Origin: a virus
Lineage: Duplodnaviria > Heunggongvirae > Uroviricota > Caudoviricetes
DNA length: 37,069 bases
IMG/VR virus record: IMGVR_UViG_2568526441_000003
Direction: 5' to 3' (one strand)
Under the pieces are notes generated by a model, which searched no databases, had not been told where the DNA came from, and saw only the letters and a list, made by a program, of their open reading frames with translations. The position numbers and the translations under genes were made by a program. Positions 1,136 through 28,240 of this stretch are shown piece by piece. Each line of letters begins with the position of its first letter. Position 1 is the first letter of the stretch.

Positions 1136-2812
1136 CTAAGCAACATGTAGTTCATCGTTGGCGGAAGTGGCTGCTTTGCGCTCCTGCTCAATAGCTAGAG
1201 ACTCTCTATATTCTTTCGCCTCTGCAAACATTGTCCAGTGGGCGTTGATGTTCATGTCTTCAATAACTGATTTGATTTCTTTTAAATTTACGTTAAAAAA
1301 CTCTTTTCGTGAGTTAATTTTATTGACCTGCTTTTCATTGAAAACTTTATGCAGATGGTTTTCTAATGATGGTGCATCATCACTATAAATCATCGCATGA
1401 ACATCGAACGAAAAAGGAACACTAGCATCTCCGAGTTCACGAACACGATCAAGTGGTTCAAGGCGGCGTGTCATTCCAATTTTATATACATCTTCGCCAA
1501 ATGAACCAATATTACTAATGATATAGACGTGGCCTGATCTGGTTTGTTGGGCCATAGAAATAGCTCGTTGATTTTTAGCTTCAGCTTCTTCATATTTTAA
1601 CTGTAGTTCAGCTATTTTTTGCTCTAAAGCTAAGCGTTGTTCTTCATTTGCAAGCATAAGTTCTTTCGTTGCTTTATTTATAGCTTGCTGAATAGCTTTT
1701 TCTTCTTTTTCAGCTTCTTTTATCGCTTTTTCATATTCTCTACGAGCTCTTTCCTCTTCACGAAGCTGTTCTTTAATCCTTCTTTGCTCTTCTTTTTCTT
1801 CGAGCATAATTTCATTAACTGCTACACCCCATTTTAGCTCGTTGAGTCTTGCCTGAAGATAGATGTCACTTATTTTTGCGGACCTAAAGGCAGAGCCATT
1901 GTAATTTACTAGTTGAAATGCATCTTTTATTTCTTGGGAAAGTTTTCCAAAATTGTTGTGTTTGACTTTTGATAAAATACTGTCAACTCTTCCATTGAAG
2001 GCATCCAAAACAAAGTTTATGGCAGTATTACGCCTGTTTTGCTCAACATAATCACACGAAGCAGCTTTATTAGTTTTTATTAATGATTTGGTTAACTCTC
2101 TGGCTTTTTGTAATTCCTTGCCTGCATCTGTAAATTCATAATTTTCTGCCAGCTCATCAAGTACACTACGGTTAGGGATGATCCATTCATCACCATAACC
2201 TTCAATTTTATTTTTCATTGATTTTGCAACTGCTTCATATTTTTCTGCAAACTCTTTAGCTTCATATGCTGAACCAGCAATCTCCTTTGCTCTTTCTTCT
2301 GCATCAGAAATAATTTTTACTGCATTGTCATTAGCATTTGAGATTAGCTCATTTGCTTTATTATTAGCATTATCAAGACGTTCTTTGGCTTTCAGGCGTG
2401 CATCGCGAGCGTCTTTGGTGATTGCTATAGCTTCGCTATTAGCGTTGCTTATTGTTATCTGAGCTTGATAATTTGCTTCGTTTACTGTTTTAGCCGCCTT
2501 AATTTGGGCTTCATCTATTTTTTGCTTGGCTATTGAGTCCGCATTTTTTATCTTATTCTCTGCATCCATTACTGCGCTGTGCAATTCTTCGTATTGCCAC
2601 AATGGTGCTGCTCGCCCTTCAAGCTCTGATAATTCTCGTACGGTCTGTGCTAGTTTTTCTTGATTTTCAATCAGTTGGTTAGAAAGGGCTATGTTGTTAG
2701 CTGTCAGGTTATCTATAGCCGCTTTGTGTTTTTTACTTTGTTTAAATAATATTACAGCTAGAACAGGGGCGAGAAATGCTAATAAGACTATAACGATGGC
2801 AAATGAATTCAT
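1136..2812 (-). CDS. cargo protein: N-terminal TM helix, long coiled coil, DUF4041-like region, C-terminal T5orf172 (GIY-YIG-like) domain; putative nuclease effector
   Basis: 558-aa ORF. N-terminus FAIVIVLLAFLAPVLAVILF is hydrophobic; long A/K/E/N-rich heptad-like stretches; C-terminal GHVYIISNIGSFGEDVYKIGMTRR matches the T5orf172/GIY-YIG-like signature from memory. Visibly AT-rich versus flanking phage DNA; SD-like AAGGA upstream of ATG; lies 20 nt downstream of cI stop on the same strand. Confidence 0.8.
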   Translation of the reverse strand: MNSFAIVIVLLAFLAPVLAVILFKQSKKHKAAIDNLTANNIALSNQLIENQEKLAQTVRELSELEGRAAPLWQYEELHSAVMDAENKIKNADSIAKQKIDEAQIKAAKTVNEANYQAQITISNANSEAIAITKDARDARLKAKERLDNANNKANELISNANDNAVKIISDAEERAKEIAGSAYEAKEFAEKYEAVAKSMKNKIEGYGDEWIIPNRSVLDELAENYEFTDAGKELQKARELTKSLIKTNKAASCDYVEQNRRNTAINFVLDAFNGRVDSILSKVKHNNFGKLSQEIKDAFQLVNYNGSAFRSAKISDIYLQARLNELKWGVAVNEIMLEEKEEQRRIKEQLREEERARREYEKAIKEAEKEEKAIQQAINKATKELMLANEEQRLALEQKIAELQLKYEEAEAKNQRAISMAQQTRSGHVYIISNIGSFGEDVYKIGMTRRLEPLDRVRELGDASVPFSFDVHAMIYSDDAPSLENHLHKVFNEKQVNKINSRKEFFNVNLKEIKSVIEDMNINAHWTMFAEAKEYRESLAIEQERKAATSANDELHVA

Positions 2813-9354: not shown

Positions 9355-10413
9355 TTAATTTTCAATTCCCTCCATTTTACAATGAGTTTTTTCCCAGAAC
9401 TGTAATACAACAGGACTAGCCCACTCTGGCATCAGTGCGTTATTTAAAAAACTGAAAACATCATGAGACGCATCAGCATTTTTTCTAAGGAATTTCCAGC
9501 CTTTTCTAGTATTTATCTCAACAATACCTAACCCACCATCATTAAACATATGCATCTTGAATTCAGGATTGTTTACACCTAGAGATTTTATTTCTTTTAT
9601 GTATGGACTATCTTCATCCATAAATATTTTCTCTATGTGCTTAGCACAATGATATATTTTATTTCGATAAGTTGATACGCTCACAGCGGTACGCGCTGTT
9701 GTTATTCCCATTCCTAATGGGGCATATGCTTTTCCATCCATCACTACGGGCAGATTTATTCCATTTTTTCTTAAGTTTGCAATATCTGAATCTGTAGTTG
9801 GATGAATACAAGCTAAGCCTGAAATACCTTTCATTTCAAATATTTCTGCTGCTTCTGGCCAGTTGCGTATGAATGTTTCTACCAAATCTCTTTGAGAAAA
9901 AAGATTTGGTTCTATGTTTTTATCATGATGTTTTATATCAATAAAAAGCACAGCGTTTGAGTACACCTTCAGGAATAATACCCACTCAGCACGATCTGAG
10001 TATTTTTTACTTGAACTTACTGGATTTAATGGCAGATGGAGGTGATGAATCCCCCAATCAGCCCATAGGTTATCCGTTCTTTTCGTCGCCTTTTTACCGC
10101 TTGTGTCATTGAATAATGTTAATGTTTTACTCTGATAAGGATTTACATCACCACCAGTAGTAAACAACATCTCGATTCTCTGCAATCCAACCCTTGCGCC
10201 ATCGTGAATATTTTCAGGAAATCGATCTGATTTTAAAATTATTCGTTTTTGTGGAGCAATGTAGCGTAAAAGAAAATCACACCACCTCAGTAGAGGATCG
10301 TGAAGATTTGAGTGCCCGGATTCATCATATAATAACCCAAATGCTTGAATTCCCTTCTCTGAAATTTCGTCAATATCTTTGATTAGATCAATATTTTTTC
10401 GTGCGTCCAACAT
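9355..10413 (-). CDS. uncharacterized 352-aa cargo protein at the tin/old-equivalent variable locus; candidate defense or exclusion gene
   Basis: Long ORF on the strand opposite the early operon, visibly AT-rich, GGAG SD 6 nt upstream of ATG; I recognise no family. Confidence 0.65.
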   Translation of the reverse strand: MLDARKNIDLIKDIDEISEKGIQAFGLLYDESGHSNLHDPLLRWCDFLLRYIAPQKRIILKSDRFPENIHDGARVGLQRIEMLFTTGGDVNPYQSKTLTLFNDTSGKKATKRTDNLWADWGIHHLHLPLNPVSSSKKYSDRAEWVLFLKVYSNAVLFIDIKHHDKNIEPNLFSQRDLVETFIRNWPEAAEIFEMKGISGLACIHPTTDSDIANLRKNGINLPVVMDGKAYAPLGMGITTARTAVSVSTYRNKIYHCAKHIEKIFMDEDSPYIKEIKSLGVNNPEFKMHMFNDGGLGIVEINTRKGWKFLRKNADASHDVFSFLNNALMPEWASPVVLQFWEKTHCKMEGIEN

Positions 10414-10946: not shown

Positions 10947-12728
10947 ATGAATTTTGATGCAACACCACTAAATATAAAAAACATTCTATCTGTAAAACAA
11001 AGATATGTTATTCCTCGTAATCAACGTGAGTTTAGTTGGGAAAAGCTTCAGCTTGAAGAGTTATGGCAAGATATTGTCAGAAACATAAGGTTGAATGAAG
11101 ATGGACAGAACTTGGAGTGTTCAGAATATTTTATAGGGACTATTGTTCTTTCTGGAGCAGATAGTGATGATGTATTAGAAGTGGTTGATGGACAACAACG
11201 ATTTTCAGTTATTACTATATTGCTTTCATTAATATCGCGTAAATTGCGTTCCTTAGGGCAAGATTCATTAGCGGATGATATATTTAAAACATATATCGTT
11301 ACTGTGAGTCCTACATTTAGCAGAAGCCAATTAGCTTCAAATGGTGAGACATTTATTGAAAAATTAGCAAAAAATAGCGATAGAACATATTTTAAGTTAA
11401 AATATCAAGATCGCGAAGAGCATCAAGTTGATGAATCTTGTGAAGAGGATGTACGTATAAGTTATGCAGGAATTTTTCTTTCTAGAAAACTAGGGAGGAA
11501 ATCACTCTGTTCTGCATTGTTGCGAGATGGTGCAAAACATTATAATAACCAAGATTATATATTTTGTTTGACTGCTGTATATAGAATGATTACCAATTAT
11601 TTGAAGTTGGTAAAAATATCTGTAGGTAAGGAGGATGATGCTTATGATATTTTTGAAGTGTTGAATGCTCGAGGGATAAACTTAAGTTCAATTGATTTGA
11701 TAAAGAATAAAGTATTCCAAACTTGCACTCAAACATATCCGGTAGATATTGCAAAAACAAAATGGGATTATATCGTTACTCAAATTGAGTCTAGGGATAG
11801 TAATAGCACTATTGCTGATTATATTAGAACGTGGTGGCTTTCTAAGTATAATTATATTGGAGAAGATCAACTTTATCGTGCTTTTAAACGTGAGATTCAA
11901 GATGAGAATACTTTATTGTCATCAGCATCATTTCTGAACGAATTATATGATGATGTTGAATTATACTGTAAAATAATAGCGCCAAATACAGATGACTGGC
12001 CTCAACCTGATCAGCGTGAAATTTACAACTCGTTAAAAGCATTCGAGATTTTTAATGTGAGTATTCCTCGACCATTTGTACTCTCATTACTTAGAAAACG
12101 TAAAGAGAAACCGAGAGCCCTTACACAATCAATGCTGATAGAATGTTTGAAGTCCTTAGAGTCATTTCACTTTAAGTTTAATGCAGTATGTCGTCTAAGA
12201 CCATCTGGAATCGATGCAAAATATTCTGTATTAGCAGTAAGAATGAATAAGGCATTAAATAAAAGAGATGTTGAGGGTGTTATTAATGACGCGTTAGATT
12301 ATTTTACACAGAAAGGACCTTCAGAAAATATATTCAAACAAGCATTTTCAAAGAATATTGTTTATACAAATAAAAAGTCTGGGCAAAGGAAGTTGATTGT
12401 TTATATTTTTGACAAATTGGAACGTATCAGACGAGGGACGCGAGAGTTAAAAATGGATATAGTTTCTTTGGAACACATATCATCTCAAAGCAAAACTAAC
12501 GAGTCAGTCGTGGGTATGATTGGTAATTTACTACCACTCTGTTTTTCACTTAATGAAGATTGCAAAAATTATGAGTTGCACAAAAAAATAGAATCTTATA
12601 AAAAATCTGATTTAAAATTAGTTACAGAGTTTGTTAGTGAGTCAGAAGCAAGAGAACATAAATGGGATGATTCATTAATAAAAGAAAGAACAGATGGCTT
12701 GGCGTTAGAAACGTTTGCTAAAATATAA
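10947..12728 (+). CDS. DUF262/DUF1524 (GmrSD-family) putative type IV modification-dependent restriction endonuclease
   Basis: 593 aa; N-terminal ParB-like DUF262 signature (NQREFSWEKLQLEELWQDI ... VVDGQQR) and C-terminal His-Me-finger-like segment (LEHISSQSK); GAGGA SD upstream; visibly AT-rich. Confidence 0.75.
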   Translation: MNFDATPLNIKNILSVKQRYVIPRNQREFSWEKLQLEELWQDIVRNIRLNEDGQNLECSEYFIGTIVLSGADSDDVLEVVDGQQRFSVITILLSLISRKLRSLGQDSLADDIFKTYIVTVSPTFSRSQLASNGETFIEKLAKNSDRTYFKLKYQDREEHQVDESCEEDVRISYAGIFLSRKLGRKSLCSALLRDGAKHYNNQDYIFCLTAVYRMITNYLKLVKISVGKEDDAYDIFEVLNARGINLSSIDLIKNKVFQTCTQTYPVDIAKTKWDYIVTQIESRDSNSTIADYIRTWWLSKYNYIGEDQLYRAFKREIQDENTLLSSASFLNELYDDVELYCKIIAPNTDDWPQPDQREIYNSLKAFEIFNVSIPRPFVLSLLRKRKEKPRALTQSMLIECLKSLESFHFKFNAVCRLRPSGIDAKYSVLAVRMNKALNKRDVEGVINDALDYFTQKGPSENIFKQAFSKNIVYTNKKSGQRKLIVYIFDKLERIRRGTRELKMDIVSLEHISSQSKTNESVVGMIGNLLPLCFSLNEDCKNYELHKKIESYKKSDLKLVTEFVSESEAREHKWDDSLIKERTDGLALETFAKI

Positions 12729-20679: not shown

Positions 20680-21076
20680 TAAAGCAGTGCCTTATGTCCG
20701 TAATAACCCGGACAAACTGCATCTGTTTGTGGATAACGGTTCGCTGGTTGCCACGGGGGCCAGCTCCATGTCATGGGAGTACCGCTACACCCTGAACGTG
20801 GTGATAGAGGATTTCAGTGGTGACCAGAATCTGTTGATGGCCCCGGTTTTGCTGTGGCTGCGTGATAACCAGCCCGATGCCATCAATAATCCCGCTTTAC
20901 GGGAAAAGTTATTCACCTTTGAGGTGGATATTCTGCGCAACGATGTCTGTGATATCAGCCTTAACCTGCAACTGACGGAACGTGTGCTGGTCAGCACTGA
21001 CGGCACAGTGTCCAGCGTTGAAGCTGTAGCGGAACCCGATGAACCTGAAGAAATGTGGACGGTGAAACGTGGCTGA
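20645..21076 (+). CDS. R: tail completion protein R
   Basis: ORF frame 20624..21076; GTG 20645 preceded by AGGAG is the likely start; synteny. Confidence 0.7.
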   Translation: MNKPQSLRHALNKAVPYVRNNPDKLHLFVDNGSLVATGASSMSWEYRYTLNVVIEDFSGDQNLLMAPVLLWLRDNQPDAINNPALREKLFTFEVDILRNDVCDISLNLQLTERVLVSTDGTVSSVEAVAEPDEPEEMWTVKRG

Positions 21077-21515
21077 ATTGCAGAAGGTGGACGACTGGCT
21101 GAGTGCCTTGCTGGCGAATCTGGAGCCAGCCGCAAGAAGCCGTATGATGCGCCAGCTGGCGCAGGAACTGCGCCGGACACAGCAGCAGAATATCAGGATG
21201 CAGCGCAATCCTGATGGCAGCAGTTATGAACCGCGCAGGGTAACAGCACGCAGCAAAAAAGGCCGCATCAAACGTCAGATGTTTGCAAAGCTGCGCACCA
21301 CAAAATACCTGAAAACTGCCGCCAGCGCCGACTCTGCCAGCGTACAGTTTGAAGGCAAGGTGCAGCGTATTGCCCGTGTTCACCATTACGGCCTGCGTGA
21401 TCGCGTCAGTCGCAAAGGACCGGAGGTCCGTTACGCAGAGCGCCGCCTGCTGGGTCTTAATGGTGAGTCTTATGTTCTAACTCTTGATATATTGAATAGA
21501 TTCCTTCTGTCTTGA
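21069..21515 (+). CDS. S: tail completion protein S (3' end runs into AT-rich insertion)
   Basis: 148 aa; synteny; last about 19 codons lie in AT-rich DNA and overlap the convergent cargo ORF. Confidence 0.7.
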   Translation: MAELQKVDDWLSALLANLEPAARSRMMRQLAQELRRTQQQNIRMQRNPDGSSYEPRRVTARSKKGRIKRQMFAKLRTTKYLKTAASADSASVQFEGKVQRIARVHHYGLRDRVSRKGPEVRYAERRLLGLNGESYVLTLDILNRFLLS

Positions 21516-22263
21516 ATTCACCATATGCCCAATGAATTGCATTTTTTTGTTCAGTTAGAATATATTTCCTAACTTTTTTAGAATAGTGAATGGTCAGTAT
21601 AAAACCCAAAGAAATCCATAATAGAATAAATATAGTTGTTGGGGCAAAGGAATAGATAAAAAATTTGTCTTTAACGAAATTCTTGACTTCTTCATCAATG
21701 TAAGCATTCCCTTCATCAGTGGTTAGTAGTTTACAAAGAATTTCTTTATGTTCGATAGTTAATGATTTGTACTTCTCTGTACTGGCAGAGGATGACTCTT
21801 CGCAATCATCCTTTGATATTTCCCAATCAGGAGTGGTTAATATTGTAGCTGCAGTCGCCATTTTTTTTGACATATAAAATGATTCACCGGACTTTATCCA
21901 ATAAAGCAATGTGCTATTTGGTGGGGTTCTAATGGCTTGGATGAAAACTGGACCAAAAAGATAAATTGCACACAAAAAAAGAAGCGAAAATAGAACCGTG
22001 AATGATTTTTCAGCCCATGTGATAGTAGGCAGCCTTTTTAATGATATTTTTATAAGAAAAAAATTTAATATAAACGCAGGTATTCCTGATTTTTTCAAAA
22101 TTACATCATGAGATTTTCTATATTTGAATAGTGCTCTTATAACTATCGTCACCAAAGTTATAACAGCTCCAATAATGGAAATCCATGCGGCAAGTGCCGC
22201 TGCTGGGGTGTTTAAAAATTCAGCATTAAATATATTAGAACTTATTGGATTCATAACACTCAT
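21457..22263 (-). CDS. cargo: uncharacterized 268-aa multi-pass membrane protein inserted between S and V; candidate exclusion or abortive-infection protein
   Basis: Visibly AT-rich; strong SD AGGTGGA 4 nt upstream of ATG; at least four hydrophobic helices (e.g. AAALAAWISIIGAVITLVTIVI, FTVLFSLLFLCAIYLFGPVFI, IYSFAPTTIFILLWISLGFILTI) around an acidic/Ser-rich soluble segment; opposite strand to the late operon. Confidence 0.7.
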   Translation of the reverse strand: MSVMNPISSNIFNAEFLNTPAAALAAWISIIGAVITLVTIVIRALFKYRKSHDVILKKSGIPAFILNFFLIKISLKRLPTITWAEKSFTVLFSLLFLCAIYLFGPVFIQAIRTPPNSTLLYWIKSGESFYMSKKMATAATILTTPDWEISKDDCEESSSASTEKYKSLTIEHKEILCKLLTTDEGNAYIDEEVKNFVKDKFFIYSFAPTTIFILLWISLGFILTIHYSKKVRKYILTEQKNAIHWAYGEFKTEGIYSIYQELEHKTHH

Positions 22264-22302
22264 TTATCCACCTATTGGTTGTTTTTTATCCTTTTGTCAA
22301 TT

Positions 22303-22320
22303 TGTACCATCGATACCACA
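22303..22320. promoter_or_regulatory. late-promoter dyad TGT-N12-ACA upstream of V (candidate PV)
   Basis: TGTaccatcgataccACA read directly; centre is only about 55 nt from the V ATG and lies within the AT-rich insert. Confidence 0.3.
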
Positions 22321-22366
22321 ATTTGCAAGAAGTTATAAACAAATTTTCATCTGTCATCATATATCT

Positions 22367-22945
22367 ATGAACGCACAATTAACCGAAATCATGCGCCTTA
22401 TCACCAACCTGATCCGCACAGGTGTAGTTACCGAAGTGGACCGGGAGAACTGGCTTTGCCGGGTGAAAACGGGCGACCTTGAAACTAACTGGATCAGTTG
22501 GCTGACGCTGCGTGCCGGGAATGCCCGCACATGGTGGCGACCATCGGAAGGTGAGCAGGTGGTGCTGCTGAGTCTGGGCGGCAATCTGGAGACTGCCTTT
22601 GCGCTGCCCGCTGTCTATTCGAATCAGTTCGCACCACCGTCGACGTCGGCGGACGCCTGCGTGACAGAACATCCTGACGGTGGCTGGTTTGAATATGAAC
22701 CCGCCACCGGGCGCTGGTATGTCAGGGGCATCAAATCAATGGTCATTGAGGCCGCTGATAACATCACCATGAAAACCAGTGAGTTTGTACTGGAGGCTGA
22801 CCGCACGCGCATTAACAGCGAAGTGGTGATCAATGGTGGCGTTACCCAGGGCGGCGGAGCGATGAGTTCTAACGGGATTGTGGTTGATGCACATCAGCAT
22901 ACTGGCGTCCTGAAAGGCGGCGATACAACCGGAGGCCCGGTATGA
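22367..22945 (+). CDS. V: baseplate spike/assembly protein V
   Basis: 192 aa from ATG 22367; ...WLTLRAGNARTWWRPSEGEQVVLLSLGGNLETAFALPAVYS... resembles P2 gpV as recalled. The upstream in-frame extension of the tracked ORF is rejected. Confidence 0.8.
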   Translation: MNAQLTEIMRLITNLIRTGVVTEVDRENWLCRVKTGDLETNWISWLTLRAGNARTWWRPSEGEQVVLLSLGGNLETAFALPAVYSNQFAPPSTSADACVTEHPDGGWFEYEPATGRWYVRGIKSMVIEAADNITMKTSEFVLEADRTRINSEVVINGGVTQGGGAMSSNGIVVDAHQHTGVLKGGDTTGGPV

Positions 22946-26332: not shown

Positions 26333-26934
26333 TGGGTGGAGCTGTATTAAATGATGCGCTGATCGCGGTAAAGGCAGGGGATATTACCGTTTATAACTAT
26401 GATAATGGGACACAGGAATATATCTCAACATCAACCGAATATCTTGCTGTCGGTGTCGGTATCCCGGCATGTTCTTGTTTAGATGCACCTGGTACACATA
26501 AAACGGGTTATGCAATTTGCCGCTCAACGGATTTGAACTCGTGGAAATATGTGCCAGACCATCGCGGTGAAATTGTTTATAGCACCGAAACGGGAGAACC
26601 AAAAGAAATCACAGCGCCAGGGGATTACCCTGAAAATATGACCACTATCGCTCCGTTAACACCATACGATAAATGGGATGGTGAGAAATGGGTAACCGAT
26701 ACCGAGGCACAATACGGTGCCGCAATAGAAGCGGCAGAAGCACAGCGCCAGTCACTGATTGATACTGCAATGGCTTCAATTAGTCTGATTCAACTGAAAT
26801 TGCAGGCCGGGAGGAAGCTGACGCAGACAGAAAACACCCGACTTAACGCCGTGCTGGATTACATTGACGCGGTGATGGCAACGGATACCAGCACTGTACC
26901 TGATATTTACTGGCCCGAATTACCTCAATTTTAA
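26332..26934 (+). CDS. G: tail fiber assembly chaperone G
   Basis: 200 aa directly after H; synteny. Confidence 0.75.
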   Translation: MGGAVLNDALIAVKAGDITVYNYDNGTQEYISTSTEYLAVGVGIPACSCLDAPGTHKTGYAICRSTDLNSWKYVPDHRGEIVYSTETGEPKEITAPGDYPENMTTIAPLTPYDKWDGEKWVTDTEAQYGAAIEAAEAQRQSLIDTAMASISLIQLKLQAGRKLTQTENTRLNAVLDYIDAVMATDTSTVPDIYWPELPQF

Positions 26935-26942
26935 ATTCCTAC

Positions 26943-26965
26943 CCCCGCGTCTGCGGGGCTTTTTT
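26943..26965 (+). terminator. rho-independent terminator after G
   Basis: CCCCGC-GTCT-GCGGGG hairpin (6-bp GC stem) followed by TTTTTT. Confidence 0.7.
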
Positions 26966-26982
26966 CATCACCGTTGTGCCAT
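26965..26982. promoter_or_regulatory. late-promoter dyad TGT-N12-ACA (candidate PF, Ogr-dependent)
   Basis: TGTgccattctccatACA about 94 nt upstream of the FI start. Confidence 0.5.
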
Positions 26983-27067
26983 TCTCCATACAAATCCCAA
27001 TTCGTGCATCCTGTGCGTATCAACCAGAACATAGTCAGACCTACTCTACAACCGGAGAGACTGCCTT

Positions 27068-28240
27068 ATGGCTCAGGATTACCACCACGGGGTGCGCGTT
27101 GTTGAAGTCAACGAAGGTACCCGATCCATTACCACGGTGAGCACCGCCATCGTGGGCATGGTCTGCACGGGCGATGATGCCGATGCAAAAATGTTTCCTC
27201 TTAATAAACCCGTGCTGATCACTGATGTGCTGACTGCCAGCGGTAAAGCGGGTGAGTCCGGCACGCTGGCCCGTTCGCTGGATGCCATCGCTGACCAGGC
27301 AAAACCCGTGACCGTTGTTGTGCGTGTGCCGCAGGGTGAAACGGAAGAAGAAACCACGACCAATATCATCGGCGCAGTGACTGCTGAAGGTAAAAAAACA
27401 GGCATGAAAGCCCTGTTATCTGCCCAGACACAGCTCGGCGTTAAACCGCGCATTCTCGGCGTGCCAGGTCACGATAACAAAGCCGTTGCGACTGAGTTGC
27501 TGAGTGTGGCGCAAAGCCTGCGTGGGTTTGCCTACCTGTCAGCGTATGGCTGCAAGACGGTACAGGAGGCGATCACTTACCGTGAAAACTTCAGCCAGCG
27601 CGAAGGAATGCTGATCTGGCCCGACTTTACTGGCTGGGACACGGTGCTGAATGCCGAAGCAACGGCATATGCCACCGCCCGTGCGCTTGGTCTGCGTGCC
27701 AAAATTGATGAGCAGACTGGGTGGCACAAAAGCCTGTCCAACGTGGGCGTGAACGGTGTCACCGGAATTTCTGCAGATGTGTTCTGGGATCTGCAGGACC
27801 CGGCAACCGATGCAGGTCTGCTGAACCAGAACGACGTCACCACGCTTGTGCGTAAAGACGGTTTCCGCTTCTGGGGTTCCCGCTGCCTGAGTGATGACCC
27901 GCTCTTTGCTTTCGAAAACTACACCCGCACGGCGCAGGTGCTGACGGACACAATGGCAGAAGCGCACATGTGGGCAGTGGACAAACCGCTGAACCCGTCG
28001 CTGGCGCGCGACATTATCGAGGGCATCCGCGCCAAAATGCGCAGCCTGGTCAGTCAGGGGTATCTCATTGGTGGTGATTGCTGGCTGGACGAGTCGGTGA
28101 ACGACAAAGACACTCTGAAAGCCGGAAAACTCACCATCGACTACGACTACACGCCAGTGCCGCCACTTGAAAATCTGATGTTGCGTCAGCGCATCACCGA
28201 TCAGTACCTGGTGAATTTCGCCAGCCAGGTCAGCGCGTAA
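27068..28240 (+). CDS. FI: tail sheath protein FI
   Basis: 390 aa; synteny and size. Confidence 0.85.

Follow-up and report, generated by a model that had tools for sequence, protein, structure and literature searches.

An AT-rich DUF6216 cassette between genes S and V of a P2/186-like Escherichia coli prophage

Why should the tail genes S and V of a P2/186-like prophage be separated by a gene for a membrane protein, read from the opposite strand and far poorer in GC than its surroundings? The question is raised by a 37,069-nucleotide stretch of viral DNA, IMG/VR record IMGVR_UViG_2568526441_000003 (hereafter the window), which is a complete P2/186-like E. coli prophage integrated between the host genes rcdA and ybjL. 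The gene in question occupies positions 21457-22263 on the minus strand, starts with ATG and encodes 268 residues. Very probably it is an accessory gene, exchanged horizontally and seated in a variable slot known before, which encodes an inner-membrane protein of the DUF6216 family and is dispensable for the phage and selected in the host. The feature is already annotated and lies in a known moron site; what it does is the less certain part of the answer, and as a candidate function we tentatively propose that the protein may act against other phages at the cell envelope.

The cassette and its slot

A sequence-only reading had described about 0.9 kb of AT-rich DNA with one minus-strand open reading frame (ORF) and a good Shine-Dalgarno (SD) sequence, and this description was confirmed when base composition, ORF and SD were read out. 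The GC content of 200-nt windows between 21500 and 22399 was 0.285-0.365, as compared to 0.52-0.60 on either flank, and the values for total GC and GC at third codon positions (GC3) were 0.32 and 0.25 for the DUF6216 gene, 0.55 and 0.58 for S, and 0.57 and 0.62 for V. The SD, AGGTGGA (22267-22273, minus strand; tccacct on the plus strand), is located 3 nt before the ATG, and most homologous cassettes carry GGAGG in its place. At 32% GC about 7.6% of random codons are stops, which by our own arithmetic gives a chance of roughly 1e-9 that 268 codons stay open. Because of this improbable length, and because the homologues are under purifying selection (see below), the ORF is not a chance reading frame.

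The edges of the cassette were placed by comparison with the cassette-free Escherichia phage 500465-1, which matches the window at 97-99% identity in the R, V, W and J proteins and at about 90% in S, and in which 68 nt lie between S and V. Homology to this phage breaks inside S, at about 21465, and returns just before the V start codon; shared 12-mers are found up to 21442 on the left and from 22365 onwards on the right. The AT-rich variable cassette thus extends approximately from 21466 to 22362, and the earlier description of an insertion between S and V was right about the place, while a clean insertion is not what the comparison shows. Since the homology is already lost inside S, the last ~16 S codons belong to the cassette. 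This cassette-borne S end (21466-21515, plus strand, the last ~16 codons plus stop, ...GESYVLTLDILNRFLLS*) is antisense to the 3' end of the DUF6216 gene, and the two frames overlap tail-to-tail by 59 nt. Each type of S/V cassette, in the window and in the equivalent loci L041-L120, has its own AT-rich S tail comprising the last ~16-18 residues; all versions keep the same amphipathic helical pattern, and the junction follows RRLLG. The possession of a separate S tail by each cassette type indicates that the recombination junction lies inside S and that the tail travels with the cargo.

The sequence-only reading was right that the S/V junction is a known moron site with a nonessential ORF in P2: orf30 (261 residues, minus strand) lies there between the S terminator and the pV site, and the orf30 locus is one of three variable regions of P2-like phages (PMC3091744, PMC6823313). 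If the ORF were a structural gene, it should be conserved at this junction in related phages, and it is not, as close relatives lack the cassette. Among 80 IMG/VR contigs with a V at least 97% identical to that of the window, the junction was empty in 57, held a DUF6216 gene in 5 and held other AT-rich minus-strand cassettes (GC 0.31-0.36) in about 17. The cassette sequence is also absent from phage KP12 and from the Kp48xx phages. Patchy distribution among close relatives and a GC3 of 0.25 against 0.58-0.62 in the flanks are both marks of a moron.

The other cargo of the slot is informative. Sister phages carry PARIS (AriA plus AriB), AbiU/AIPR and a PDC-S15 FRG gene (L116:1288-3388, L097:1662-3362 and L118:2480-3415), together with at least seven unknown minus-strand ORFs of 146-393 residues, several of them with transmembrane (TM) segments (L043, L104, L114, L071, L072, L049 and L045). 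A defence role for the DUF6216 gene is plausible because these three systems sit in exactly the same S/V slot. The arrangement resembles the P2/P4 defence hotspots (PMC9122126), in which a short locus between conserved genes likewise harbours AT-rich cargo with fast turnover, and PARIS, described in that work by Rousset et al. (2022), is also among the S/V cargo. The locus treated there, gpA-gpQ (tin/old), is next to cos, whereas the S/V slot is away from cos and its cassettes bring their own S C-terminus; a term search of the text of PMC9122126 found no mention of orf30, gpS or gpV. Exchange of such cassettes makes the S/V junction a defence-rich hotspot and a compact place in which to seek new defence genes.

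The DUF6216 protein and its relatives

The sequence-only reading had found no recognisable family in the protein, and in this it was mistaken. The match to Pfam DUF6216 (PF19723) scored 49.1 bits, over a cut-off of 27.3 (E 5.9e-13), and covers residues 71-237 on model positions 113-265 of 270; RefSeq (PGAP) already uses the name, as identical E. coli proteins are labelled 'DUF6216 family protein'. The N-terminal third of the window protein, comprising TM1 and the cytoplasmic loop, lies outside this match and is a clade-specific version. Of 40 relatives collected, 38 match DUF6216 (best 1.1e-80), and the members have in common a plan of three TM segments, the motifs W...DC and ..IC.., and a length of 225-296 residues. 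Membership in the family gives no indication of function.

At least four TM helices around an acidic, Ser-rich segment had been proposed. Hydropathy and charge support three firm helices, and the acidic loop stands. Strong hydrophobic segments were found at residues 19-48, 84-113 and 201-229, with a weaker stretch at 60-76 (mean Kyte-Doolittle value 1.5). The loop 49-83 is basic (7 K+R vs 1 D+E), the loop 114-200 is acidic and contains both cysteines, C154 and C177, and the C-terminal tail is K/R-rich (6 K+R vs 5 D+E), most densely so directly after TM3, a basic tail that is conserved. From the positive-inside rule we infer that the protein probably has three TM helices, with the N-terminus outside, the C-terminus inside and residues 114-200 in the periplasm. 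Only C154 and C177 are invariant in an alignment of 40 sequences with identities as low as about 15%; W147 and F129 are at least 90% conserved, and the two cysteines probably form a periplasmic disulfide.

The AlphaFold2 (AF2) model, with a mean predicted local distance difference test (pLDDT) score of 74.8 and about 90 for residues 90-150 and 170-220, consists of TM2, four short beta strands, two to three short helices that bear the cysteines, and a long helix running via TM3 into the cytoplasm. The protein would thus be laid out as an outside N-terminus, TM1, a basic cytoplasmic loop, TM2, an acidic periplasmic domain of ~90 residues, TM3 and a basic cytoplasmic helix, and the periplasmic domain would comprise four beta strands and two helices, with a probable C154-C177 clamp. 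A sequence profile search of the PDB with the DUF6216 protein returned no match, and among solved or viral predicted structures none resembles the model beyond generic helices.

The family is small and confined, with 50 clusters at 50% identity among 1.84 billion representatives, and all members with a named organism belong to the Enterobacterales; a word-indexed homologue search with the broad profile returned the close clade only, and scans of viral contigs by back-translation of the broad alignment or of P0038, P0039 or P0040 did not yield any members. Among 5426 complete E. coli genomes the cassette is present in 111 (~2%) and its flanks in 971. The S/V location is shared by alleles at 47-50% identity (L006, L024 and L025), whose S and V are 82-86% identical, and also by members as remote as 19-25% identity, one in Tatumella (L035) and one in a metagenome contig (L125). 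Other contexts exist as well. A 33%-identity member lies in a lambdoid prophage (L027:8001-8741, also L028) between Q/N6_N4 methyltransferase and a holin-endolysin-Rz cassette; in Pectobacterium a member is found on a mobile element with SIR2_2, MobA, TraD and H-NS; and in Winslowiella the gene is chromosomal, phage genes being absent within 7 kb of it. In the lambdoid prophage, a ParE/HTH toxin-antitoxin pair is directly upstream of the DUF6216 member.

P2 Orf30 itself (NP_046770, 261 residues, nonessential) is alike in several respects, as it occupies the same slot on the same strand, has a similar length and follows the same plan of hydropathy; here, too, a pair of cysteines lies in the loop that precedes the last TM. 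From TM2 to the C-terminal end, the AF2 model of an Orf30 homologue repeats the order of elements of the DUF6216 model: after TM2 come four beta strands, a short helix with the first cysteine, a helix with the second, and the long TM3 helix. Support from sequence comparison is borderline. BLASTP of Orf30 against the window protein gave an E value of 0.084, and the hhalign probability was 0.3% with a shallow close-clade profile and 41% (E 2.7e-4) with a broad profile of 40 sequences; both programs align the cysteine pair and the last TM of the two proteins. Pfam DUF6216 matched none of five Orf30 family members. A Foldseek search against BFVD returned no match for either model; as the Orf30 model did not even find itself, BFVD lacks Orf30, and the negative result for the DUF6216 model says nothing about a shared fold. 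Orf30 differs in having a longer cytoplasmic loop (residues 32-105), and P2 differs in having a strong terminator between S and orf30 and no overlap with S. Common ancestry of DUF6216 and Orf30 is likely, not established. A more speculative extension, which we consider rather unlikely, would be that the two make up one ancient, hyper-divergent exclusion superfamily of periplasm-facing proteins with three TM helices, seated at S/V across the P2-like phages of Enterobacterales, its periplasmic diversification being driven by the DNA-delivery machinery of competitors and its members being repeatedly domesticated at ybjL-rcdA, so that S/V would be a third, unmined defence hotspot.

Selection on the gene in intact and decayed prophages

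Selection on the gene was assessed from its homologues in intact and degraded prophages. Pairwise dN/dS (the ratio of nonsynonymous to synonymous substitution rates) against the window copy ranged from 0.14 to 0.31, degraded prophages included; in these, the values were 0.25 (L002), 0.18 (L022), 0.20 (L029), 0.16 (L003) and 0.16 (L005). The state of the remnants is instructive. In Citrobacter youngae the DUF6216 ORF is intact beside ybjL, and V, S and R are reduced to fragments; in Scandinavium it is intact at the same place with only fragments of V, CI and int left; and in C. sedlakii and a metagenome-assembled genome it is intact beside ybjL with no detectable phage genes. In Serratia rubidaea, ogr, the DUF6216 gene and S are the sole remains of the prophage. 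In several species of Franconibacter the gene is an orphan flanked by ybjL and rcdA, and in the metagenome locus L032, which holds a different allele, an int fragment adjoins the orphan gene. The orphans at ybjL-rcdA are located at L031:7001-7732, at L032:7001-7741 and around 6001-6800 in L002-L005. This site is the attachment site of the window prophage, and the scars that accompany the gene range from gene fragments to nothing.

The prophage of BL21(DE3) (L040, 877000-912000) is a defective, heavily deleted P2-like relative at the same rcdA|ybjL site. It has lost the capsid genes between O and the lysozyme gene, these two included, and its D and one recombinase are truncated; it keeps an intact DUF6216 gene between S and V, the product of which is 97% identical to the window protein, and it keeps this gene beside the retron Eco1 locus. 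As for the origin of the orphans, we considered the opposite course, the capture of the gene from the ybjL region by a phage through imprecise excision, and rejected it, as the gene is in the middle of the phage genome and the decay intermediates (fragments of V, S and R in L002, fragments of V, CI and int in L005, an int scar in L032) show the opposite direction. That the gene has been kept time and again after decay of the prophage makes it a clear case of moron domestication, even if the protein should turn out to have an envelope role unrelated to phages.

These data bear on two further explanations. In the first, the ORF would be a functionless hitch-hiker, kept in place by its linked neighbours, the S tail and the pV control region; as it overlaps S at the 3' end of that gene and has the pV activator site just upstream, deletions would often damage the phage. 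This is very hard to reconcile with a dN/dS well below 1 along the whole gene, with frames that stay unbroken in remnants that have already lost S and V, and with cysteines that are invariant, and a W147 that is at least 90% conserved, among members at 15-30% identity. We accordingly give it very little credence.

The second would make the gene an accessory of the phage cycle, acting on lysis timing in the manner of a holin or antiholin, or on assembly of the phage's own tail or baseplate in certain hosts. The gene does adjoin lysis and tail genes, the lambdoid member is immediately upstream of a holin, and the HP1 holin family gives a weak match below threshold. On inspection the latter (Phage_holin_2_3, PF16080; 14.7 bits vs a cut-off of 28.8) amounts to one TM helix, and assignment of the protein as a holin was rejected. 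Moreover, the gene is on the strand opposite to the late operons, is lacking in 57 of the 80 closest relatives and in isolated phages, and is intact where lysis and tail genes have been deleted. An accessory role in the phage cycle is thus highly improbable.

Divergence among alleles is uneven along the protein. Deep alleles at the same site are 67-78% identical in the N-terminus and 65-83% in the C-terminal tail, and just 32-35% in the periplasmic domain and 28-36% in TM3.

Expression, candidate function and prophage setting

The sequence-only reading spoke of an interrupted late operon, which was imprecise, since S/V is the boundary between the late O and V operons and the activator dyad of pV is kept. 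In P2 the O-operon terminator comes first at this place, followed by orf30 on the minus strand, then by the activator site of pV and finally by the start of V transcription. The window has a TGT-N12-ACA dyad, an Ogr-type activator site of the late promoter pV, at 22303-22320 (plus strand), 46 nt before the V ATG; its spacing to the ATG is equal in phage 500465-1, and the annotated P2 site is in the equivalent place. In P2, V is annotated as being transcribed from its start codon onwards, so that a leaderless V mRNA is implied for the window too. The dyad is part of a divergent control region of 103 nt between the starts of the DUF6216 gene and V (22264-22366), which is highly conserved, being nearly invariant across alleles whose proteins share only 47-50% identity.

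Within this region we found by eye a candidate minus-strand promoter with TTGCAA at 22328-22323, a 16-nt spacer and TGgTACAAA ending at 22301. It would be a weak promoter of the extended -10 type that overlaps the activator dyad, and it failed a consensus scan; if it is functional, the gene would be transcribed from its own promoter, divergently from pV. No terminator was found by consensus scan, and RNA folding gave no strong hairpin after S or after the ORF: the fold at the 3' end of S in the window (21505-21560) had a z of -1.1, as compared to -26.8 kcal/mol and a z of -6.1 in P2 (L026:390-440). Because the window has no strong terminator after S, late O-operon transcription probably runs antisense through the DUF6216 gene. 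For BL21, a 2026 preprint (10.64898/2026.09.05.749240) reports a peak of H-NS over the prophage's DUF6216 gene in chromatin immunoprecipitation sequencing and upregulation of the gene in an hns/stpA double mutant; H-NS would thus hold its expression low in the lysogen.

As to function, the cassette would be a horizontally exchanged moron module in the orf30 slot, serving the lysogen and not virion production, and its most likely job would be interference with other phages at the level of the envelope. We infer this candidate role from the defence genes found in the slot and throughout the prophage, from the fast divergence of the periplasmic domain, from silencing by H-NS and from an analogy with SieA of P22. 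The latter (PMC10883804) is likewise a small inner-membrane protein of three predicted TMs that a prophage expresses; identity between its sequence types is below 30%, its conserved motif is predicted to be cytoplasmic, and its gene, too, follows the last late gene tail-to-tail, being read from the opposite strand. SieA differs in its length of 162-164 residues and in having no periplasmic domain of ~90 residues. Its block of DNA injection has been demonstrated (PMC10883804), and the likeness of DUF6216 to it is by analogy only; homology was rejected at an hhalign probability of 0.26%. The DUF6216 protein could act in either of two ways: like a superinfection-exclusion protein, it might stop genomes from being delivered across the inner membrane, or, like an abortive-infection effector, it might permeabilise the membrane on infection.

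The second of these mechanisms can be set out as an explanation of its own, which overlaps the preferred one and differs from it in mechanism only. When an incoming phage perturbs the inner membrane, the protein would form oligomers and depolarise that membrane, so that the cell dies before progeny are made, and H-NS would limit its toxicity. AbiU and PARIS, both abortive systems, occupy the same slot; the BL21 gene is bound and silenced by H-NS, as toxic immunity genes are; and the protein has three TMs and long helices with no enzymatic domain. No sensor or cytoplasmic effector domain can be identified, however, and the best-conserved soluble domain faces the periplasm by the positive-inside rule, which suits interference with entry better than sensing inside the cell. 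We regard an abortive effector as improbable.

The main rival of an anti-phage function is lysogenic conversion with an envelope role unrelated to phages, in which the gene would be host-fitness cargo of prophages and plasmids, concerned with membrane physiology or with immunity or resistance to a membrane-targeting bacteriocin, a contact-dependent or type VI secretion toxin, or an environmental stress. The Franconibacter orphans at ybjL-rcdA fit such a role at least as well as they fit defence; the Winslowiella copy stands on the chromosome away from phage genes, no defence hidden Markov model (HMM) matches the protein, and purifying selection persists where no functional phage is left. Immunity proteins against pore-forming colicins, too, are typically small multi-pass inner-membrane proteins. 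Against this role, sister phages fill the slot with bona fide anti-phage systems, all other cargo genes of the window prophage are defence genes, no toxin or partner gene was found in any of the contexts examined, and strong periplasmic divergence among alleles in near-identical phages fits an arms race better. We therefore consider a role apart from phages rather unlikely.

Several observations nevertheless weigh against an anti-phage function of the DUF6216 protein. Silencing by H-NS may keep the native level too low for action, and no sigma-70 promoter on the minus strand upstream of the ORF passes a consensus scan. Both the Franconibacter orphans and the Winslowiella copy fit a housekeeping-like role in the envelope as well. 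Hotspots of this kind also hold non-defence genes, so that guilt by association is weak (Rousset et al., PMC9122126). None of the 5027 models of PADLOC-DB 2.0 matched the window protein at E values up to 10, nor P0040, P0065, P0086 or P2 Orf30 at E values up to 0.01, and neither PHROG (E<0.1) nor NCBIfam gave a match for the window protein, three distant members or P2 Orf30. Finally, tblastn with the window protein and two distant members found no homologue in 50,697 GenBank phage records. If DUF6216 proteins do exclude phages, they would constitute a family of single-gene, envelope-level immunity present in ~2% of complete E. coli genomes, BL21 included, and fixed as orphan genes in some other Enterobacterales, and a function would be at hand for the long-unexplained orf30 of P2.

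The remainder of the window is that of a complete P2/186-like prophage. At its left end the integrase is followed by a 186-type CI repressor and gpA, and at its right end are ybjL and ybjM of the host. Late-gene order was derived by matching the late proteins encoded in the window to P2-like loci related to it. Gene S (21069-21515, plus strand; Phage_tail_S, 5.7e-40), for tail completion and virion morphogenesis, is the last gene of the O operon, and gene V (22367-22945, plus strand; Phage_base_V plus Apex), for the baseplate spike, is the first of the V operon. With G and FI just 133 nt apart (26934-27068), the slot that holds the Z/fun cargo in P2 is empty here.

Besides the DUF6216 gene, the prophage has three recognised defence genes. 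A PD-Lambda-1 gene (1136-2812, minus strand; 558 residues, T5orf172/MUG113 plus DUF4041, PADLOC 2.3e-120, GC 0.37) lies between the integrase and CI. The other two are in the gpA-gpQ (tin/old) hotspot: a PD-T4-7 gene (9355-10413, minus strand; 352 residues, 3.9e-144, with no Pfam domain) and a gene for a GmrSD-type enzyme (10947-12728, plus strand; 593 residues, GmrSD_N plus GmrSD_C, PADLOC HEC-06 9.2e-75). The GC3 of all three is equally as low as that of the DUF6216 gene.

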